From the NCBI GenBank assembly GCA_964554085.1, contig CAZKMY010000002.1, positions 1 to 36,664 on the forward strand: DNA of 36,664 bases, read 5' to 3'. The DNA is from an uncultured Pseudomonadales bacterium (GTDB lineage: Bacteria > Patescibacteriota > Microgenomatia > UBA1400 > RBG-16-45-19). The notes under the pieces are model-generated. The model was given only the letters and a program-made list of their open reading frames with translations, did not search any database and had not been told where the DNA came from. Positions 127 through 35,508 of the stretch are shown here, piece by piece (position 1 is the stretch's first letter; each line of letters opens with the position of its first letter). The translations under genes were made by a program, and so were the position numbers.

Positions 127-2256
127 ATGGGTCGTAAACGTGGGCGCCGACGCGCCTTAAAGCTAAAACTGAAAAAAGAAACCCTCCTCTCCATCGTGAG
201 TTTGGGGTTTATTGTCACGGGCGTCCTGATGATAATCTCCTTTGCAGGTCAAGGAGCCTGGCTTGAGTCAATTCAAAATTATCTGGCCACCCATTTTGGC
301 TTTGCCGCACTCATTTTGCCCTTCATGTTCCTTTCTGCTGGTCTTATGTTGACACAACTGAAGTGGTTTATTGCCAAGCCCAACGTCTTTTTGGGGAGTG
401 TATTAGTATTTGCCGGATTGTTGGGAGTAGGTAAGGGTGGATCGGTTGGACAAGATATTTTTCTCAACCTCGCCGCCCTCATCATGCCTATCGGAGCCAC
501 CATTTTACTTATCGCCATCATGTTTTCCGGCATCATGATCATGACAGAATCATCTCTGGCAGAATGGCTCATCAAGATATCCAACATTCTTTCATTCCGC
601 CGCCGGTCCACTACGGTGGCCGGTTTGCAAAACGATAAGAAAAATTTCCCCCTTATGCCCGTAAAGACTGATCTCAAGATAAAGGGTGGACAAGTGAGTG
701 AGGTTGAACCAGCTACCGAGCCAGTCAAGCCTGCAAGTGAATCGCCTGCCAATGGGTCTGCTCCGGCCAGTACCGAACCTACTCACAGCTTGATTGTAAA
801 TAATCCAGGCGAAAATACTCATATTTATCAGCCGCCGTCAGTTGATTTACTTGATGCCAAGATGGGAGCTCCAGCTGACCGAGGCGATGTCAAAGGCAAT
901 GCGCACATAATTGAGGAAACGTTGGATTCATTCGGTATTCAAGCACATGTGGATGAAGCGAACCAAGGTCCCGCGGTTACCCAATACGCGCTCAATATCA
1001 AACGAGGCACGAAACTTTCCCGGATCACTGCCTTGCAAAATGATCTAGCCTTAGCTTTAGCCGCTCCCACGGGTCAAATCCGGATTGAAGCTCCTATCCC
1101 TGGACGTAATTTAGTAGGCATTGAAATCCCTAATCGTCGTCCAGAAATGGTCAGTTTACGCAAAATGGTTACCGCTCCGAATCTGAAAAAGACGTCAAGC
1201 AAAACTGCATTTGGATTGGGACTTAACGTGTCCGGTGAAGTGGTGGTGACCGACCTGACCAAGATGCCTCACGTCTTGATTGCGGGAGCTACGGGTTCCG
1301 GTAAATCTGTCTCTGTTAATGCCTTAATTATGCAAATTTTGTTCCGCGCCTCACCCGAAGAAGTAAAGTTTATGATGGTGGATCCCAAACGGGTAGAGTT
1401 GACGCAATACAATGGAATTCCTCATTTGATTTGTCCCGTCATTGTCGAACCAGACAAGGTGCTGAATGCGCTCAACTGGGCCGTCACGGAAATGAATAAC
1501 CGCTACAAGATGTTTGCTGAAGTCGGAGCTCGCAATATTGAAGGCTTCAACCAAATGGCCGCTTATCAATCCATTCCGTACATCGTCATTATTATCGATG
1601 AGTTGGCCGATATCATGCTGTTTGCTCCCGCAAAAGTTGAAGACGCCATCACTCGGTTAGCTCAAATGGCTCGGGCAGTTGGCATTCATCTTGTTCTGGC
1701 CACCCAGCGTCCTTCGGTAGACGTCTTGACGGGCTTGATTAAAGCCAACGTTCCTTGCCGCATTGCCTTCAACGTCACTTCCATGATCGATTCCCGCGTC
1801 ATCATTGATAGTCCGGGAGCCGAAAAGCTAATTGGTAAGGGAGATATGCTCTACATTCCTCCTGATCAATCCAAACCCTCCCGTATCCAAGGAGCGTATG
1901 TTTCCGAAGAAGAAGTAAAACGAGTCTTAGATTTCATCAAATCACAAACACCTGAAGTACACTACACTGAGGAAATCACTCAAAAAACGGGTCCAGGAGC
2001 CGTCATGGGTTCAGATGGACAGATGGAAGATGCCGATCCACTCTTTAATCAAGCAGTAGAACTGGTTGTTGCTAACCAAAAGGCCTCAGCCTCGTTATTT
2101 CAACGCCATCTTCAAATTGGGTATGCCCGAGCTGCCCGGGTCTTGGATCAATTGGAACATGCAGGGGTGGTTGGTCCCGGTGACGGAGCCAAACCCCGTA
2201 ATATTTTGGTCAAATCCATGGAAGAATGGAAAGCTAGACAGGTAAGTAACAAGTGA
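127..2256 (+). CDS. ftsK: DNA translocase FtsK/SpoIIIE
   Basis: 709-aa ORF with an N-terminal multi-TM region, Walker A GATGSGKS and Walker B IIIDELAD. The C-terminal gamma winged helix reads LFQRHLQIGYARAARVLDQLEHAGVVGP. Confidence 0.9.
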   Translation: MGRKRGRRRALKLKLKKETLLSIVSLGFIVTGVLMIISFAGQGAWLESIQNYLATHFGFAALILPFMFLSAGLMLTQLKWFIAKPNVFLGSVLVFAGLLGVGKGGSVGQDIFLNLAALIMPIGATILLIAIMFSGIMIMTESSLAEWLIKISNILSFRRRSTTVAGLQNDKKNFPLMPVKTDLKIKGGQVSEVEPATEPVKPASESPANGSAPASTEPTHSLIVNNPGENTHIYQPPSVDLLDAKMGAPADRGDVKGNAHIIEETLDSFGIQAHVDEANQGPAVTQYALNIKRGTKLSRITALQNDLALALAAPTGQIRIEAPIPGRNLVGIEIPNRRPEMVSLRKMVTAPNLKKTSSKTAFGLGLNVSGEVVVTDLTKMPHVLIAGATGSGKSVSVNALIMQILFRASPEEVKFMMVDPKRVELTQYNGIPHLICPVIVEPDKVLNALNWAVTEMNNRYKMFAEVGARNIEGFNQMAAYQSIPYIVIIIDELADIMLFAPAKVEDAITRLAQMARAVGIHLVLATQRPSVDVLTGLIKANVPCRIAFNVTSMIDSRVIIDSPGAEKLIGKGDMLYIPPDQSKPSRIQGAYVSEEEVKRVLDFIKSQTPEVHYTEEITQKTGPGAVMGSDGQMEDADPLFNQAVELVVANQKASASLFQRHLQIGYARAARVLDQLEHAGVVGPGDGAKPRNILVKSMEEWKARQVSNK

Positions 2257-2320
2257 CAAGCAACAAGAAACAAGAATACTCTTGTGACTTGTCTCTTGTA
2301 TCTTGTGTCTTATATCTATT
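2249..2320 (+). repeat. Heptad-phased inverted array: 4x ACAAG, centre AATACT, then 4x CTTGT plus two decayed units
   Basis: ACAAG occurs at 2249, 2256, 2263 and 2270. CTTGT occurs at 2281, 2288, 2295 and 2302, followed by CTTAT at 2309 and CTATT at 2316. The period is exactly 7 nt. The array overlaps the ftsK stop and abuts ATG 2321. Confidence 0.85.
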
Positions 2321-3004: not shown

Positions 3005-4198
3005 ATGGATAGAGTAAGTAAAAACAAAAAATCTCCCCCAAAACATCGCAGGTTACCGAAACAAAAACCGAATTTAGTTACAACAACGTGGTTTTCCGCA
3101 CTAACAAAGATAAATAACGCTCCACTCATCGGACTCATAGTCGTATTTCTTGTAATCATTACTATCGGTTCTGTTATATATACAAAACTAACTTCATTCC
3201 AAAAACATACCTATCAAACCTCGAGATTAAACACAGAAAAAACGACAAAAATAAACACTACAACAGATAAAAAGTTAGATACTCAAACACACAGTGATAC
3301 GGGAAATTGGACACTTAAGAAAATTGCTTCAAATAAACAAACAACAATAGTTAGTTTGTCAAAATCAGACAGCAAACTTGTGAGTTGGGGAGATTATATT
3401 TTCTGGGTCGATCCTGCGTATACCGAAAATATCCAAGTAAAAAGCCTCAATCTTAAAACAGGTGAACAAAAAATTATTTACGATCAAAGTAAAAGAAAAC
3501 AAGATTTTCCAGAATCAATGAATAAAACGCATGATGACTACTATTCCATTGATATGGTGGTTATCGATAACACGTTATTCTTTTCTATCGGCGCATACCT
3601 CAACAATGGAGTAACGTATTATGTTGACTTACCTGTTATAGACAAGATAAATATATTGGCACGTTTTGATGGTTGGTTTGAGAAATGGGGGGGTGAAAAC
3701 TGGTTTGAATATGGATTTAGCGACGGATGTGGGGGATCTTCAACGTACGCATTACTAAATCTTGATAATAAGCAATATATTCCTATCACAACGATTAAGA
3801 GTTCATGTATTGGAGGGGAAGTTCGAGTAGACATTGACATTAAAAGAAGAATGTTGGTTGCTGGATATCGGCCAACAAGTGGTACAAACACTGATAATGG
3901 TTCAACCTATGAATATGTGTATGCAGTCCCTTTAGATAATCCAGGTACACAGGTGGGAATAATCTCAAAACAAGATATGCCCGCAGGGATTACTTCGGTT
4001 ACCTATGTTAGAGACACAGATAAATTATTGTTATCAGGTGAAACAAGCTATTTGTTTGATTTATCATCAAAAAGCATTTCAAAAACAAATTCTACCCCAC
4101 CCTCAATTCCAACAATTTCATCACAGGAAGAAACTCTTCAAACACAAATACAAAACATGCAATTACCCTCAGATTACAAGTGGGTTCAAGTAGAATAA
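3005..4198 (+). CDS. Hypothetical membrane-anchored extracytoplasmic protein (low-GC gene)
   Basis: Long ORF. The first ATG is at 3005, while the track start 2969 is a TTG without an SD. It has a basic N-terminus and one TM (LIGLIVVFLVIITIGSVIY), then a Thr/Lys-rich linker. The rest is an aromatic/Gly-rich beta-type domain (DYIFWVD, DNTLFFSIG). No family was recognised with confidence. Confidence 0.7.
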   Translation: MDRVSKNKKSPPKHRRLPKQKPNLVTTTWFSALTKINNAPLIGLIVVFLVIITIGSVIYTKLTSFQKHTYQTSRLNTEKTTKINTTTDKKLDTQTHSDTGNWTLKKIASNKQTTIVSLSKSDSKLVSWGDYIFWVDPAYTENIQVKSLNLKTGEQKIIYDQSKRKQDFPESMNKTHDDYYSIDMVVIDNTLFFSIGAYLNNGVTYYVDLPVIDKINILARFDGWFEKWGGENWFEYGFSDGCGGSSTYALLNLDNKQYIPITTIKSSCIGGEVRVDIDIKRRMLVAGYRPTSGTNTDNGSTYEYVYAVPLDNPGTQVGIISKQDMPAGITSVTYVRDTDKLLLSGETSYLFDLSSKSISKTNSTPPSIPTISSQEETLQTQIQNMQLPSDYKWVQVE

Positions 4199-4879: not shown

Positions 4880-5119
4880 ATGCAGTATAATGCAGGTCGT
4901 ATGCCTGACACGGTAAATGCTATTACCAAGAATGATCTTGATCGTATCGAAGCTTCCTTAAAGCAAGTGATCGAGATGGCTAAAGTGCAAAAATCAGGCG
5001 CCGAGATTGACGATATGCTCAAAACCTTGTCCCGAACCGTAGGCGATCTCAAAATGACCGTTGAATTCGATCATGAAAAACGTCTCCGGGCCATTGAAGA
5101 ATTCTTGCAAAACTTATGA
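4880..5119 (+). CDS. Small (79 aa) predicted coiled-coil protein, unknown function
   Basis: SD GAAGGA lies 6 nt upstream of the start. Its stop overlaps the alaS start (ATGA at 5116-5119), which implies translational coupling. Confidence 0.5.
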   Translation: MQYNAGRMPDTVNAITKNDLDRIEASLKQVIEMAKVQKSGAEIDDMLKTLSRTVGDLKMTVEFDHEKRLRAIEEFLQNL

Positions 5120-6987
5120 CAGGTACGCAAATTCGTCAGGCTTATTTAGATTTTTTTGAAAGTTTACCCCGGAATCACGCCCAAATCCCCCCTGCGCGGC
5201 TAGTTCCCGAAAATGATCCCACCACGTTGTTTACCAGTTCCGGTATGCAGCAGTTGGTTCCTTATCTCAAGGGCGAAGCTCACTCCATGGGTACCCGTCT
5301 GGTTGATTCCCAACCATCATTTCGGGCCGAGGATATCGAGGAAGTCGGTGACAACCGACACACTACTTTTTTTGAAATGCTTGGAAATTGGTCCTTGGGT
5401 GATTATTTTAAAGCCGAACAATTGCCGTGGATCTATGAATTCCTTACTCAAAAGATTGGTCTAGATCCGAGCCGGATCTATGTGACTGTATTCGCCGGCA
5501 ACGACTCAGTAGCTCGCGACGATGAGGCTATCCGTATTTGGCAACAACTTTTTCAAACAGATACATCAGCTCAGCCCGGCGTAGCCGGATTTGATCCTGC
5601 AGTCAAAATTTATGAGTATGACGCCAAAAAGAACTGGTGGTCGCGTGCCGGTATCCCCGCCAATATGCCCATCGGCGAAATTGGCGGTCCCGACTCAGAA
5701 ATGTTTTATGATTTCGACCCGGACAATACCAAACATCTCCACGAACAATCACCCTTCAAAGATAAGCCTTGCCACGTCAATTGTGACTGTGGGCGGTTTA
5801 TGGAAATCGGTAATTCCGTTTTTATGCAATATATCAAAACTGAAGCTGGTTTCGAGCCACTTCCCAAACAAAATGTAGATTTTGGTGGTGGTTTGGAGCG
5901 GCTTGCGGCTGCAGCCATCGACAATTCAGATGTATTCACCACCAGCCTGTTCCAACCCATCATTGCGGTCATCGAAAATCTTTCTGGTAAGACCTATGCT
6001 CAAAATCCAGGTCCTATGCGTATCATTGCCGATCATATGCGGGCCGCCACGTTCCTCATTGCTCAGGGAGTACTACCTGCCAACAAAATGCAGGGATATT
6101 TCCTCCGTCGGTTACTCCGCCGGTCCATGGTCAAATTACAACAACTTCAAAATACGGAATCGACACAATCATCCAATCATCCCTTCAGCCAAATTGCCGA
6201 TGCAGTGATTTCAATCTATCAAGATTCATATCTCGCCGCAGTTGATCGCGAGGAAATCGCTCGCATTATCGAGGATGAACAGATTCGTTTTGGTAAAACG
6301 CTTCATAAGGGGATGCGGGAAATCGAAAAGGCGAATCCTGAAAGTATTACCGGCAAATTTGCCTTTGATCTCTACCAAACTTTTGGCTTTCCCTTGGAGG
6401 TTACCGAAGAATTAGTCAAAGAGAAAGGCGTCGTAGTTGATCGTGAGGCCTTCCGAGCTGAATTTAAAAAACATCAGGATATTTCCCGGGCCGGATCTCA
6501 AAGTTTGTTTAAAGGTGGTCTAGCTGATCATTCAGAAATCATCGTGAAATATCACACCACCACCCATCTCTTGCATGCAGCCCTTCGCCAAGTACTGGGT
6601 CTTCATGTGCAGCAAATGGGATCAAATATTACTGCTGATCGGCTTCGTTTTGACTTTAAACACGATGCTAAATTAAGCGAAGCCGAGTTAGACTCGGTCG
6701 AAGCTCTAATCAATGAAAAAATTCAAGCCAACTTACCCGTTCATAAAACCATTGAGGCAAAAGATGAGGCAATCAAATCTGGAGCGATGGCATTTTTCCG
6801 GGATAAATATCCCGATACCGTATCGGTATACACTATTGGTAACAATCCTCAATCAGGTTGGTTTAGTAAAGAATTGTGCGGTGGACCGCATGTCAGCTCG
6901 ACAGGCGTCATTGGTCCTGTTACGATTAAAAAAGAGGAAGCGGTTGGCGCGGGAATCCGTCGGGTGTACATCACTCTAAAAAACTAA
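5116..6987 (+). CDS. alaS: Alanine--tRNA ligase, short form lacking the C-Ala domain
   Basis: The class II AlaRS N-terminus reads IRQAYLDFFES..., TTLFTSSGMQQ, RHTTFFEMLGNWSLGDYFK. The editing-domain zinc motifs HTTTHLLH and CGGPHV are present. The protein ends about 30 aa after CGGPH (GIRRVYITLKN), giving 623 aa. Confidence 0.9.
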   Translation: MTGTQIRQAYLDFFESLPRNHAQIPPARLVPENDPTTLFTSSGMQQLVPYLKGEAHSMGTRLVDSQPSFRAEDIEEVGDNRHTTFFEMLGNWSLGDYFKAEQLPWIYEFLTQKIGLDPSRIYVTVFAGNDSVARDDEAIRIWQQLFQTDTSAQPGVAGFDPAVKIYEYDAKKNWWSRAGIPANMPIGEIGGPDSEMFYDFDPDNTKHLHEQSPFKDKPCHVNCDCGRFMEIGNSVFMQYIKTEAGFEPLPKQNVDFGGGLERLAAAAIDNSDVFTTSLFQPIIAVIENLSGKTYAQNPGPMRIIADHMRAATFLIAQGVLPANKMQGYFLRRLLRRSMVKLQQLQNTESTQSSNHPFSQIADAVISIYQDSYLAAVDREEIARIIEDEQIRFGKTLHKGMREIEKANPESITGKFAFDLYQTFGFPLEVTEELVKEKGVVVDREAFRAEFKKHQDISRAGSQSLFKGGLADHSEIIVKYHTTTHLLHAALRQVLGLHVQQMGSNITADRLRFDFKHDAKLSEAELDSVEALINEKIQANLPVHKTIEAKDEAIKSGAMAFFRDKYPDTVSVYTIGNNPQSGWFSKELCGGPHVSSTGVIGPVTIKKEEAVGAGIRRVYITLKN

Positions 6988-10147: not shown

Positions 10148-10163
10148 AATACTTCCATCACAC

Positions 10164-10192
10164 TAGACCCTAAACCCTGAACCCTGTATCCT
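10164..10192 (+). repeat. Heptad array TAGACCC-TAAACCC-TGAACCC-TGTATCC abutting the Nudix start codon
   Basis: Four units in exact 7-nt phase at 10164, 10171, 10178 and 10185, then T and ATG 10193. The array is preceded by CACTAGA. There is no SD. Confidence 0.8.
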
Positions 10193-24929: not shown

Positions 24930-24945
24930 ATTGGAAACAACACAA

Positions 24946-24972
24946 TCTCCCGGTCCTCAAAAAACCGGGAGA
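24946..24972 (+). terminator. Stem-loop 3' of tuf (8-bp stem TCTCCCGG / CCGGGAGA, 11-nt loop), no U-tract
   Basis: A perfect inverted repeat read directly, 17 nt after the tuf stop. With no T-run it may be an attenuator or a stabilising hairpin rather than a full terminator. Confidence 0.35.
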
Positions 24973-24999
24973 CTGTAGAAATAAATAGAAGAGGAAAGT

Positions 25000-28650: not shown

Positions 28651-29307
28651 ATGGGACAAAAAGTACATCCATTTGGATTCCGTTTAGGACCACTGTATAC
28701 CTGGAAATCTCGTTGGTTTGTTGGTAACTCAGAGCAATATAAAGCACAAGTAATTGAAGATTATAAATTGCGGAATTTCCTGCACGAAAAACTAAAAACT
28801 GCCGGATTAACGGAAGTTGTTATTGAGCGGTCTATCAATACAATTACGGTTGTATTACATGTATCCCGTCCCGGTGTTGTTATTGGCCGTGGTGGTGCGA
28901 ATTTGGAACAATTGAAAAAAGACGTCTTAAACCAACTGAAAATCAAGGCAGACTCCAAAGCAACTAAAGTCGAACTTAAAGTTGAAGAAGAGAAAAATCC
29001 CGATATTCAAGCTTCCCTTATTATTGCGCGGTTGATTGATCAATTGGAACATCGGTACCCTCATCGTCGTGCCTGCATGCAGGCCATGGAAAAGGCTATT
29101 GCAGCTGGCGCAAAAGGGATTAAAATAATCCTCTCAGGACGTATTAATGGTGCAGAGATTGGTCGGACTGAAAAGTTCACCAATGGCACTGTGCCGACAC
29201 AAACGCTCCGCGCCGATATTGATTATGCCGAAAAGCCCGCACTTACCAAATCTGGGTATGTGGGCATTAAGGTTTATGTATATAAAGGTGAACGACAAAC
29301 TAATTAA
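28651..29307 (+). CDS. rpsC: 30S ribosomal protein S3
   Basis: ATG 28651 begins MGQKVHPFGFRLG and is preceded by the SD GAAGGA. The track's start at 28486 would overlap rplV. Confidence 0.96.
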   Translation: MGQKVHPFGFRLGPLYTWKSRWFVGNSEQYKAQVIEDYKLRNFLHEKLKTAGLTEVVIERSINTITVVLHVSRPGVVIGRGGANLEQLKKDVLNQLKIKADSKATKVELKVEEEKNPDIQASLIIARLIDQLEHRYPHRRACMQAMEKAIAAGAKGIKIILSGRINGAEIGRTEKFTNGTVPTQTLRADIDYAEKPALTKSGYVGIKVYVYKGERQTN

Positions 29308-29317
29308 GTCACTAGAT

Positions 29318-29429
29318 ACAAGTTACAAGAAATAAGATTAACGAAGGAGCAAGCAAAAAAAACATAACAAGATCATTTAACAACAAGTAATAACTTGTGT
29401 CTTGTATCTTGTCGCTTGTTACTACACAT
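29318..29429 (+). repeat. Heptad ACAAG/CTTGT element filling the 122-nt rpsC-rplP spacer
   Basis: ACAAG occurs at 29318 and 29325, a degenerate ATAAG at 29332, and further ACAAG at 29367 and 29383. After the loop TAATAA, CTTGT occurs at 29394, 29401, 29408 and 29415 in exact 7-nt phase, then TACTACACAT and ATG 29430. Confidence 0.85.
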
Positions 29430-29834
29430 ATGATGCAGCCTAAACGCAGAAAATACCGAAAAGAATTCAGAGGCTCCCGAAATGGTAAAGCCACTCGGGG
29501 TGTCAATGTCAATTTTGGTGATTTTGGTCTTCAAGCACTTTCACCAGCTTGGTTAACTGCCCGGCAAATTGAAGCTGCCCGCAAAACCATCGCTCACGAA
29601 ACCAAACGCGCGGGTAAATTATGGATTCGCATCTTCCCAGACAAGCCCACCACGCACAAACCAGCCGGTGTGAAAATGGGTGGTGGAAAAGGTGATATTG
29701 AAGAATATGTAGCAGTTGTTAAACCTGGACGGATTATCTTTGAGCTTGGAGGATTGTCTCTCGAAGCTGCCAAAGAAGCTTTCCGTAAAGCGGGCCATAA
29801 GTTGCCGTTTGGCACCAAAATGGTTGAACGGTAA
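29430..29834 (+). CDS. rplP: 50S ribosomal protein L16
   Basis: [15 protein letters not shown] matches the canonical L16 N-terminus. The track's GTG start at 29397 lies inside the repeat. There is no SD. Confidence 0.95.
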
Positions 29835-31635: not shown

Positions 31636-31821
31636 ATGGCTCGTAAAGTCCAAATCGAAAAATCAAACAACAAACCAAAATTTGCCACCCGCCATGTCAA
31701 TCGGTGTCAACTCTGCGGTCGCCATCATTCCTACATTGGTTATTTTGGACTATGCCGTATTTGCTTTAGAGATATGGCTCATAAAGGTGAATTACCTGGT
31801 GTAGTTAAATCAAATAACTAA
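31636..31821 (+). CDS. rpsN: 30S ribosomal protein S14, zinc-binding type Z (61 aa)
   Basis: The CxxC...CxxC arrangement (CQLCGR...CRIC) and the short 61-aa form match type Z S14. Confidence 0.95.
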
Positions 31822-31853
31822 TTACTAATAACTGAAACCTAAACCCTAAACAT
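31819..31853 (+). repeat. Heptad array TAATTAC-TAATAAC-TGAAACC-TAAACCC-TAAACAT abutting the rpsH start codon
   Basis: Five units in exact 7-nt phase at 31819, 31826, 31833, 31840 and 31847. The first unit contains the rpsN stop and the last ends at the base before ATG 31854. There is no SD. Confidence 0.75.
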
Positions 31854-34182: not shown

Positions 34183-35452
34183 AATCTTTCAGGAAATCAC
34201 CCTCGTACCCGAGCTTAAGAAAAAGCTCTTGTTTACTGCCGGCATCTTTGCCGCCTACCGTTTACTCGCACATATTCCGGTTCCCGGCGTCGATTTGGTG
34301 CAAATTAAAAGTCTTTTCTTACAAAATCAACTCCTCAGTCTTTTAAATATTTTTTCGGGTGGAACATTGGCAAATTTCTCCATTGCCGCTCTCAATCTGG
34401 GACCCTATATCAACGCCTCCATCATTATCCAATTGTTAACTATGGTGTTCCCCAAGCTTGAAGCCTTGAGTAAAGAGGGGGATTCAGGCCGTGAACAACT
34501 TGACTATTACACCCGATGCATCACGATTCCTTTGGCTATCATTCAGGCCATCGGCATCTATGCGCTCCTTACCAGCCAGCACTTGATTACAATTTCCTCT
34601 CCAGTCCAGACTGTTGGTGTAATTACCACGATGGTTGCAGGCACGATGCTACTCATGTGGTTTGGTGGCCTGATTACGCAATATGGCATTGGTAATGGTA
34701 CTTCCATGCTTATTTTTGCCGGTATCGTTTCGGCTTTGCCCGTGTCCTTGTTTAAAACCCTCTCAGTGTCAGATGCGGCTCAGCTATCCAGCTTACTTAT
34801 TTTTGTTGTTATTGGTATTGCGGTTATCACCGCCATCGTCTTCATGAATGAAGCATTGCGAAAAATTCCCGTCCACTATGCCCGTCGCTTACGCGGTTCA
34901 TCCAGTTTTGGCACGCAGTCTACTCACTTACCACTGCGCTTAAATCAGGCTGGCGTAATTCCTATCATCTTCGCGGTATCCCTTGTCATGATTCCTTCAC
35001 TCGCTGGTCGTTTCTTGACCGGCTCAGGCAACGCTCAATTGGTTGCTATCGGCAATTTCTTTGCCACTCATTTCACTCCTCAATCATTGGCATACAATCT
35101 CACCTATTTCATCCTAGTCTTAGGATTTACCTATTTTTACACCGCGGTTGTCTTTGATCCTGAAAAAATTGCCGACGAAATCAAGAAAAATGGCGGTTTT
35201 GTCCCTGGCATACGTCCGGGAAAAGCTACCGTTAGTTATCTCAACTATGTCTTAATTCGTATCACCTTAATGGGAGCGATCTTTTTAGGATTAATCGCGA
35301 TTCTGCCTGCCTTGGCTCAGGTAGTTACGGGCGTCACCTCACTAACACTGGGAGGTACCGGTATTCTTATCGTGGTATCCGTCATTTTGGAGACCAGCAA
35401 GCAAGTTGAAGCACTGTTGGTGATGAAAAATTACGATCGGTTCCTGAGTTAG
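34166..35452 (+). CDS. secY: Preprotein translocase subunit SecY
   Basis: GTG 34166 lies 11 nt after the SD TAGGAGG and overlaps rplO by 17 nt. The protein has the 10-TM SecY pattern ([12 protein letters not shown]; [13 protein letters not shown]; [13 protein letters not shown]). Confidence 0.95.
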
Positions 35453-35454
35453 TT

Positions 35455-35508
35455 ACAAGCCAGAAGCGGTTCCGGTGTCCACCGGAATGACTTGTGTCTT
35501 GTAACTAC
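35455..35508 (+). repeat. Short copy of the ACAAG/CTTGT element enclosing a GC-rich hairpin, 3' of secY
   Basis: The left arm is ACAAG at 35455 and AGAAG at 35462. The inner hairpin is TTCCGGTG-tc-CACCGGAA (35470-35487). The right arm is CTTGT at 35491 and 35498, followed by AACTAC. Confidence 0.8.

Follow-up and report, generated by a model that had tools for sequence, protein, structure and literature searches.

The window analysed here is a complete contig of 36,664 nucleotides (nt), CAZKMY010000002.1, and inside its S10 operon the genes for ribosomal proteins S3 and L16 (rpsC and rplP) are separated by a 122-nt spacer that carries heptad repeats. The genes of the window run on one strand throughout and include ftsK, alaS, rpoB, rpoC, and a str-S10-spc-secY-adk block. 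Judged by its relatives, the host belongs to the Patescibacteria (candidate phyla radiation, CPR), near the Microgenomates groups, with Beckwithbacteria, Chisholmbacteria, Gottesmanbacteria, and Levybacteria among the named relatives. Two of the loci fetched for comparison, which carry L numbers throughout, are titled "uncultured Pseudomonadales" (L001, CAZKZW010000013.1, and L002, CAZQBH010000032.1); by ribosomal proteins and by gene order, both fall in this Patescibacteria clade, and the label looks wrong. From rplC to rplO the remaining gaps measure only -1 to 32 nt, which makes the rpsC-rplP spacer the maximum of the ribosomal-protein block, as a preliminary description of this DNA had stated. 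Other gaps measure 70 nt (tuf-rpsJ), 87 nt (rpsJ-rplC), and 90 nt (secY-adk).

We call the element in the spacer E2 and its related copies E1, E3, and E4 (Table 1). The units of its left arm start at 29311 (ACTAG), 29318 and 29325 (both ACAAG), and 29332 (ATAAG); on the + strand, a U.G wobble allows this last unit to pair with CTTGT. The A-rich insert that follows contains GAAGGAG (29343-29349), which resembles a Shine-Dalgarno (SD) site, and an ACAAG at 29367-29371 that keeps the phase of the left arm (49 nt = 7x7); the ACAAG at 29383 is off phase by 2 nt. The apical loop has 6 nt, the same size as the loop of E1 (AATACT). In the right arm, CTTGT recurs at 29394, 29401, 29408, and 29415 in exact 7-nt phase (29394-29419) before a tail, TACTACACAT, and 10 nt separate the last unit from the rplP start codon. 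That the gene starts at ATG 29430 is supported by the N-terminus MMQPKRRK, which is kept in relatives. Most genes near rplP have an AAGGA-type site with an anti-SD duplex of -3 to -10.8 kcal/mol, and the best duplex for rplP is 0 kcal/mol. The preliminary description was accurate in what it observed: every coordinate that it gave for the units, GAAGGAG, and the ATG proved correct on re-reading, the GAAGGAG is indeed an orphan with no ATG, GTG, or TTG in the following 20 nt, and rplP does lack an SD site.

Table 1. Heptad elements of the window and their neighbouring genes (positions in the window; E4 lies in the related locus L148)
Feature	Position	Strand	Basis or remark
rpsC (ribosomal protein S3)	28651..29307	+	translation; KH_2 and Ribosomal_S3_C domains on identical protein; stop TAA 29305-29307
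rpsC-rplP spacer, 122 nt	29308..29429	+	E2, apparently inserted, plus a few ancestral bases at either end
E2 left heptad arm, ACTAG-at-ACAAG-tt-ACAAG-aa-ATAAG	29311..29336	+	pairs with right arm in predicted fold
E2 A-rich insert, 46 nt, within left arm	29337..29382	+	predicted unpaired
E2 apical mini-hairpin, ACAAG-TAATAA-CTTGT	29383..29398	+	TAATAA loop 29388-29393
E2 right heptad arm, CTTGT x4 then ta-CTACA	29394..29426	+	sequence pattern
rplP (ribosomal protein L16)	29430..29834	+	ATG start 29430; no SD in 22 nt upstream
E1, junction of ftsK and rodZ-like helix-turn-helix gene	2242..2313	+	compact, 5+5 units, loop AATACT; Pfam hits for genes
E3, secY-adk junction	35450..35507	+	10-bp basal stem includes secY stop TAG; two heptads per arm around GC-rich apical hairpin
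E4, infA-rpmJ junction of L148			4+4 units; ends 7 nt before ATG
Direct heptads ACTAG-ACCCTAA-ACCCTGA-ACCCTGT-ATCCT	10160..10192	+	abut NUDIX ATG 10193; gene without SD
Direct heptads TAACTAA-TTACTAA-TAACTGA-AACCTAA-ACCCTAA, rpsN-rpsH	31809..31852	+	rpsH without SD

The repeat pattern in the window is far above chance. A two-unit pattern, CTTGTNNCTTGT, searched with at most one mismatch, occurs 17 times against an expectation of 2.5 +/- 1.7, and none of 100 shuffles reaches 17. The matches concentrate at three sites (2249-2313, 29311-29419, and 35455-35502), in agreement with the earlier observation that the spacer, inside the S10 operon, carries a heptad element of a kind also present at two further sites in the window. 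When E2 is folded, its arms pair over 29313-29424 with an energy of -23 kcal/mol (z = -2.6; 3 of 200 shuffles were equally good), a weaker result than for the compact copies because of the 46-nt unpaired insert. A short-word BLAST of this insert against all of the fetched loci returned only chance matches of 11-13 nt. All 122 nt of the spacer recur base for base in L016 and L017, two contigs from two other sequencing runs, which indicates that the spacer is real and not an assembly artefact.

Comparison with relatives changes how the spacer must be read. Among the 19 related genome stretches in which we compared the rpsC-rplP junction, none has ACAAG/CTTGT heptads at that place. The nearest other species (L001, L154), whose rpsC and rplP DNA is 86-88% identical to that of the window and whose L16 protein is 97% identical (L001), has a spacer of 5 nt, TAACCAATATG. 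The corresponding lengths are 11 nt in L002 and L146, 2 nt in L003 and L149, 12 nt in L145, and 20 nt in L147, with 1-26 nt in more distant CPR. An automatic search reported an apparent gap of 228 nt in the most distant locus, L015 (RplP identity 50%), and that locus has no heptad array. In L148 the junction (5294-5343) holds 50 nt with three copies of an unrelated, partly palindromic octamer repeat, GTGACACT; within the clade, this junction appears to have taken up insertions on more than one occasion. On this comparison the 122 nt were evidently inserted within the lineage leading to the window species and are not a conserved part of the operon, and the rpsC-rplP copy is, by the same evidence, recent and specific to that species. 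The site it occupies was previously a stop-to-start junction of 2-12 nt. The preliminary description had argued that an element sitting in so conserved an operon must have a required function in mRNA processing or translation, and it had named beforehand the comparison of this junction in relatives as able to refute that argument. In 18 of the 19 loci the junction measures only 1-26 nt and is free of such repeats, which is essentially the refuting outcome, and since the element is absent there from every related genome examined, the copy at rpsC-rplP cannot be required. The claim of a required function for this copy is not supported by the sequences compared, and the interpretation as a whole is partly supported. 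No covariation can be observed at E2, as all three sequences to hand are identical.

E2 is a member of a small family of "ladder" hairpins with the form (nnACAAG)n, loop, (CTTGTnn)n. At least three such hairpins lie in the 36.7-kb contig, and related copies are found at other junctions in sister species. All four members, E1 to E4, are situated between co-directional genes and begin 0-3 nt past the upstream stop codon, and three of them (E1, E2, and E4) end 7-10 nt before a downstream ATG that lacks an SD site. E1 folds into five 5-bp helices with 2x2 internal loops between them (-29.9 kcal/mol, z = -6.1). At 2242-2256, its left arm supplies the last four codons of ftsK and the TGA stop (2254-2256). 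FtsK ends in ...ARQVSNK* in the window versus ...ARQSGNKQ* in the nearest species, and the insertion of E1 appears to have rewritten this C-terminus, with VSNK* in place of SGNKQ*. E1 is absent from the nearest species (L150, with an ftsK gap of 3 nt) and from L153. E3 folds at -30.4 kcal/mol (z = -6.7; the L145 copy has z = -4.6), is identical in L138 and L139, and has orthologous copies in L154 and L145. At the infA-rpmJ junction, where L148 carries E4, the window species has only 9 nt, TAAAGGAAACCGATG. The right arm of E2 and E3 have CTTGTGTCTTGTA and a terminal ACTAC in common; otherwise, the four members differ in spacer dinucleotides, loops, and unit numbers. A further 6.5 kb or so of the window species (L139) contained no additional copy, and about 43 kb of this species was examined in all.

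The history of E3 is one reason for keeping a functional explanation under consideration. Its arms are almost constant across the window species, L154, and L145 (TAGTTACAAGCCAGAAGCG...GACTTGTGTCTTGTAACTAC), and its apex is a different GC-rich stem-loop in each species that still pairs with itself (35468-35489 in the window; L154 11303-11322; L145 11300-11332). This apex would have been either replaced or very fast-evolving. L146 has no E3 but a secY-adk spacer of 20 nt, and a neighbour-joining tree of the rplP-secY region groups L145 with L146. It follows that E3 is old, that its arms are under some constraint, and that it can be lost. Conserved arms could also be explained by concerted evolution. 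Across the family, the variant stem positions on the mRNA strand are G.U in five cases and A.C in one, an excess that hints at pairing at the level of RNA.

Taken as a functional RNA element, the hairpin would have been selected for processing or stability of the operon mRNA or for SD-independent translation of rplP, either by holding stop and start codons together or through a ribosome standby site formed by the unpaired GAAGGAG/A-rich bulge. The persistence of the secY-adk copy among genes that share 72-88% DNA identity, the swapped but pairing apices, the mostly G.U stem variants on the sense strand, the SD-less ATG placed 7-10 nt after three of the four members, and the essential genes rplP and rpmJ directly downstream would all fit. 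Yet a copy that is missing from rpsC-rplP in the relatives, and another that L146 has lost from secY-adk without replacement, do not behave as needed parts. Structure just after a stop codon and spacing beyond about 70 nt are reported to weaken coupling (PMC12548453), and the proposed standby site lies about 80 nt upstream of the AUG, with about 26 bp of stem in between. No Rfam family matches the element, and the identical E2 sequences offer no covariation. We consider selection for such a function unlikely, at least as an explanation of the rpsC-rplP copy. A modest RNA-level role for the family is possible, and this form of the idea stays alive because the secY-adk copy has persisted in three species with conserved arms and because the stem variants are mostly G.U.

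Heptads also occur in the window as direct arrays (Table 1). Stops of all three kinds, TAG, TAA, and TGA, stand in three different frames of the array at 10160-10192. The sortase-NUDIX spacer to which it belongs (10148-10192) is 45 nt long and made of direct heptads; at this junction the nearest species has overlapping TAATG, and the protein starts MIDLL there versus MTMLDLL in the window. Similar ACTAR heptads are seen at rpsK-rpsD of L148 and L149. At the rpsN-rpsH junction, relatives carry between 0 and about 6 nnACTAA units, and the array of the window includes the exact unit TAACTGA that is known from Beggiatoaceae. Segments of period 7 number seven in the window versus one to four for periods 5, 6, and 8-11. 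Four of the five SD-less genes in the window directly follow a heptad array, and only the leaders with direct arrays are predicted to be clearly open (unpaired probability 0.59-0.76).

These arrays closely resemble the TAACTGA heptamers described by MacGregor in 2015 as direct repeats in Beggiatoaceae, Cyanobacteria, and some Bacteroidetes, with one inverted set reported (PMC4679880). Those repeats are almost always intergenic and end a few nucleotides from start codons, the genes downstream mostly lack SD sites, the upstream open reading frame (ORF) may be overlapped at its end, and they are found even in ribosomal-protein operons, where close relatives have shorter repeat-free spacers; translational regulation was proposed as their function (PMC4679880). 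The direct arrays at 10160-10192 and 31809-31852 share the head-to-tail arrangement with stops in all frames. E2 has in common with the TAACTGA repeats its tandem units of exactly 7 nt in both arms, its intergenic position with the last unit 10 nt before ATG 29430, the SD score of 0 for rplP, and the variation in presence and unit number among close relatives of the window species. It differs in that two opposed arrays form a hairpin, instead of one array running head to tail, and in that its core is ACAAG/CTTGT with variable 2-nt spacers and not a fixed 7-mer; ACAAG also contains no stop codon. In a wider sense, long simple-sequence repeats with 7-nt units are its nearest known counterparts. 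Patescibacteria are a new host phylum for heptamer repeats.

Palindromic insertion elements provide the second comparison. Repetitive extragenic palindromic (REP) elements from one and the same genome have a consensus of about 35 nt in common, and a conserved GTAG/GTGG tetranucleotide stands beside the palindrome. Copies are numerous in a genome, and the palindrome that unites them measures about 20-40 nt. REPs and the bacterial interspersed mosaic elements (BIMEs) are short, extragenic, imperfect palindromes, co-transcribed at gene ends, that can act as mRNA stabilisers, vary between strains, and are connected with RAYT transposases (reviewed in PMC3184786). E2 is likewise palindromic, extragenic, and present or absent between relatives. 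CTAC (GTAG on the other strand), which resembles the REP tetranucleotide, follows the right arm in two of the four members, E2 and E3 (the latter in three species); E1 has CTAT and E4 has CTGA. Unlike REPs, the four members have nothing in common beyond the 5-nt core and a brief end motif, with about 43 kb of the window species covered, and a ladder of heptads is not a REP feature. No RAYT (Y1 transposase) is present among the genes listed for the fetched loci of the clade. Bacterial miniature inverted-repeat transposable elements (MITEs) come in near-identical copies with defined terminal inverted repeats and a duplicated target. The hairpins of two such elements, the Correia element of Neisseria and the enterobacterial ERIC, can be RNase targets or alter mRNA stability. 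Both are small, non-coding inverted-repeat insertions that are polymorphic, co-transcribed, and capable of forming long hairpins (reviewed in PMC2229807 and PMC3184786). The heptad arms of E2 correspond to terminal inverted repeats, but the copies are heterogeneous, the arms are simple-sequence arrays, and no insertion sequence was seen in the sequence examined. A candidate target-site duplication, ACTA, flanks E2 on both sides and is single in L146 and L145; the nearest species, however, has CCAAT, and the duplication is not reproduced at E1, E3, or E4. E2 combines known kinds of element, namely heptamer simple-sequence repeats and REP/MITE-like hairpins, and what is new is the phylum and the hairpin form. 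Our literature search found no report of such elements in Patescibacteria.

We lean, with slightly better than even confidence, toward reading the spacer as a small, species-specific palindromic heptad-repeat insertion that is co-transcribed as an RNA hairpin and tolerated as a passenger, with rplP translated without an SD site. The element would have come as a copy of a pre-existing family member in the form of ready-made DNA. The empty sites (CCAAT; CCT) have no seed of a CTTGT arm, which argues for such an arrival, and in E1 all of the spacer positions are mismatched while all of the cores are paired, a pattern that simple inverted duplication would not give. Once in place, the arms would gain or lose units by 7-nt slippage. 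The insertion would have removed the original tight stop-start junction, and the element would be read through within the S10-operon mRNA. There it is expected to form an imperfect ladder hairpin whose stem base lies 3-5 nt past the stop of rpsC and ends 5-10 nt short of the AUG of rplP, which would bring the two codons within about 10 nt of each other in space. The short leader, unpaired and pyrimidine/A-rich, could then allow translation of rplP to begin de novo, or ribosomes ending rpsC could be passed across the stem base; this hand-over is no more likely than SD-independent initiation de novo. Any effect on mRNA stability or processing would be secondary.

Several observations weigh against this passenger insertion. 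The copies have only the 5-nt core and an ACTAC-like end in common, and none of those sampled resembles a recent copy of one master. The genes listed for the clade DNA examined, roughly 190 kb in all, include no transposase, and the copies show no consistent target-site duplication. The empty site at ftsK, GCAACAAACAATAA, is already left-arm-like, which leaves room for growth in place. At 5 to 1, the G.U bias of the stems falls short of significance (one-sided p about 0.11). The rplP start is predicted to be of no more than average accessibility (unpaired probability 0.47, mid-range for the operon and not discriminating). Hand-over in particular is disfavoured by published work in which coupling declines as distance grows and when structure closely follows the stop (PMC12548453).

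Growth in place would dispense with a mobile copy altogether. Replication slippage in steps of 7 nt would start from seeds beside the stop codon, and template switching would supply the opposite arm. The rpsN-rpsH arrays lend this idea substance, as they begin at the stop context AACTAA and range widely in unit number among relatives, and so do the enrichment of period 7 in the window, the left-arm-like empty site at ftsK, the variation in unit number and spacer bases between copies, and the fact that the outermost units are the most degenerate. A template switch, however, predicts complementary spacers, and in E1 8 of 8 spacer positions are mismatched although every core pairs and the nearest species has no E1. 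The empty sites hold no seed for a CTTGT arm, more than 100 nt would have to appear in one step with no intermediates in any relative, and slippage with switching does not predict a fixed polarity of the arms (14 to 1 among the matches listed). These difficulties make growth in place improbable as the origin of E2, and insertion of a ready-made element remains the reading that we prefer.

The polarity of the arms became apparent outside the clade. A metagenome scan for four CTTGTNN units returned at least 120 loci (L018-L137), and among the matches listed most are plain tandem heptamers from unrelated organisms. Within the same list, 14 loci from unrelated organisms (39-64% GC) have an ACAAG array followed by a CTTGT array within 250 nt, for example L029 3405-3494, L096 146-228, and L101 2251-2333; the reverse order, CTTGT before ACAAG, was represented by one weak case. 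In the 11 listed loci that were checked for flanking ORFs, the arrays lie essentially between ORFs. The fixed polarity is our main reason against dismissing the element as pure slippage noise. One metagenome contig, L044, contains at least three copies (2280-2460, 3520-3700, and 4940-5057) of an element of about 200 nt with ACAAG/CTTGT heptad ends and an interior of other AT-rich heptads (ccaatat / ttggtta). These copies adjoin four-helix-bundle and pilin-like genes.

The omega repressor of inc18 plasmids binds heptad operators (WATCACW), TRAP and HutP bind periodic RNA sites, and the period is 7 nt for omega and HutP. Arrays of this kind can run in direct or inverted orientation, with every unit recognised by one protein subunit. 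By analogy only, the short conserved core of E2 at a fixed 7-nt period resembles the sites of omega and HutP. The ACAAG heptads could be iterons recognised in double-stranded DNA by a heptad-reading protein, in the manner of plasmid omega-repressor operators or centromere-like sites, or by a transposase that recognises subterminal repeats. A conserved 5-bp core with two free bases at a strict 7-bp period would suit such a protein, as would the convergent arrays of fixed polarity in the 14 metagenome loci and the presence of the same sequence on opposite strands in both arms. Unlike the omega, TRAP, and HutP arrays, E2 lies inside an operon, and the evidence favours a hairpin over an operator or a protein-coated single strand. 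The sites have no promoter-like sequence and no candidate partner gene next to them, the stem variants favour pairing of the sense-strand RNA, and E3 conserves hairpin formation rather than heptad number. An array that acts at the level of DNA is highly improbable here. A bolder proposal, that ACAAG/CTTGT ladders are a widespread, polarity-fixed class read by a protein or by the ribosome, which in this CPR lineage would replace SD initiation with structure-guided re-initiation at essential operon junctions, strikes us as a long shot.

Other identities for the spacer were considered and rejected. The TIGR (Tas-associated) guide arrays of CPR lie next to a Tas gene with a Nop domain, and each of their units, about 36 nt long, contains two spacers of 8-9 nt (PMC12045711); the 7-nt period with two variable bases and the neighbours rpsC and rplP rule out such an array. 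Neither the whole window nor the spacer has an Rfam match at the gathering score or at E <= 1, and no tRNA or tmRNA was found. A ribosomal-protein autoregulatory leader or another curated RNA was rejected on the lack of an Rfam match and because relatives do not have the element at this junction. The spacer region (29150-29550) contains no promoter-like or terminator-like site beyond shuffle expectation, and the stems are AU-rich, which argues against an intrinsic terminator with its GC-rich hairpin and following U tract. A small ORF behind GAAGGAG would need a start codon, and none follows. Nothing supports either of the minus-strand ORFs (29312-29512 and 29373-29534). GTG 29397, which is in frame through the right arm, is an alternative start for rplP; it has no SD site, and relatives use the conserved ATGATG. 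Elsewhere in the window, the tuf-rpsJ spacer contains a strong GC hairpin (24942-24976, ctcccggtcctcaaaaaaccgggag) that is a possible attenuator or terminator before rpsJ.

CPR genomes are small and tightly packed. In one CPR lineage, nonetheless, repeat hairpins of 45-122 nt have come to divide junctions that measure 2-12 nt or overlap in relatives, including junctions before essential ribosomal genes, and the local SD sites were lost in the process. The host must be able to start highly expressed genes without an SD site and far from the upstream stop codon. Sister species with and without the insertion provide a natural test case for translational coupling and SD-independent initiation beyond the model bacteria. 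Annotators should avoid labelling the rpsC-rplP spacer a conserved regulatory leader. More broadly, these elements add a new phylum to the known range of the puzzling heptamer repeats, and a hairpin to their known forms.

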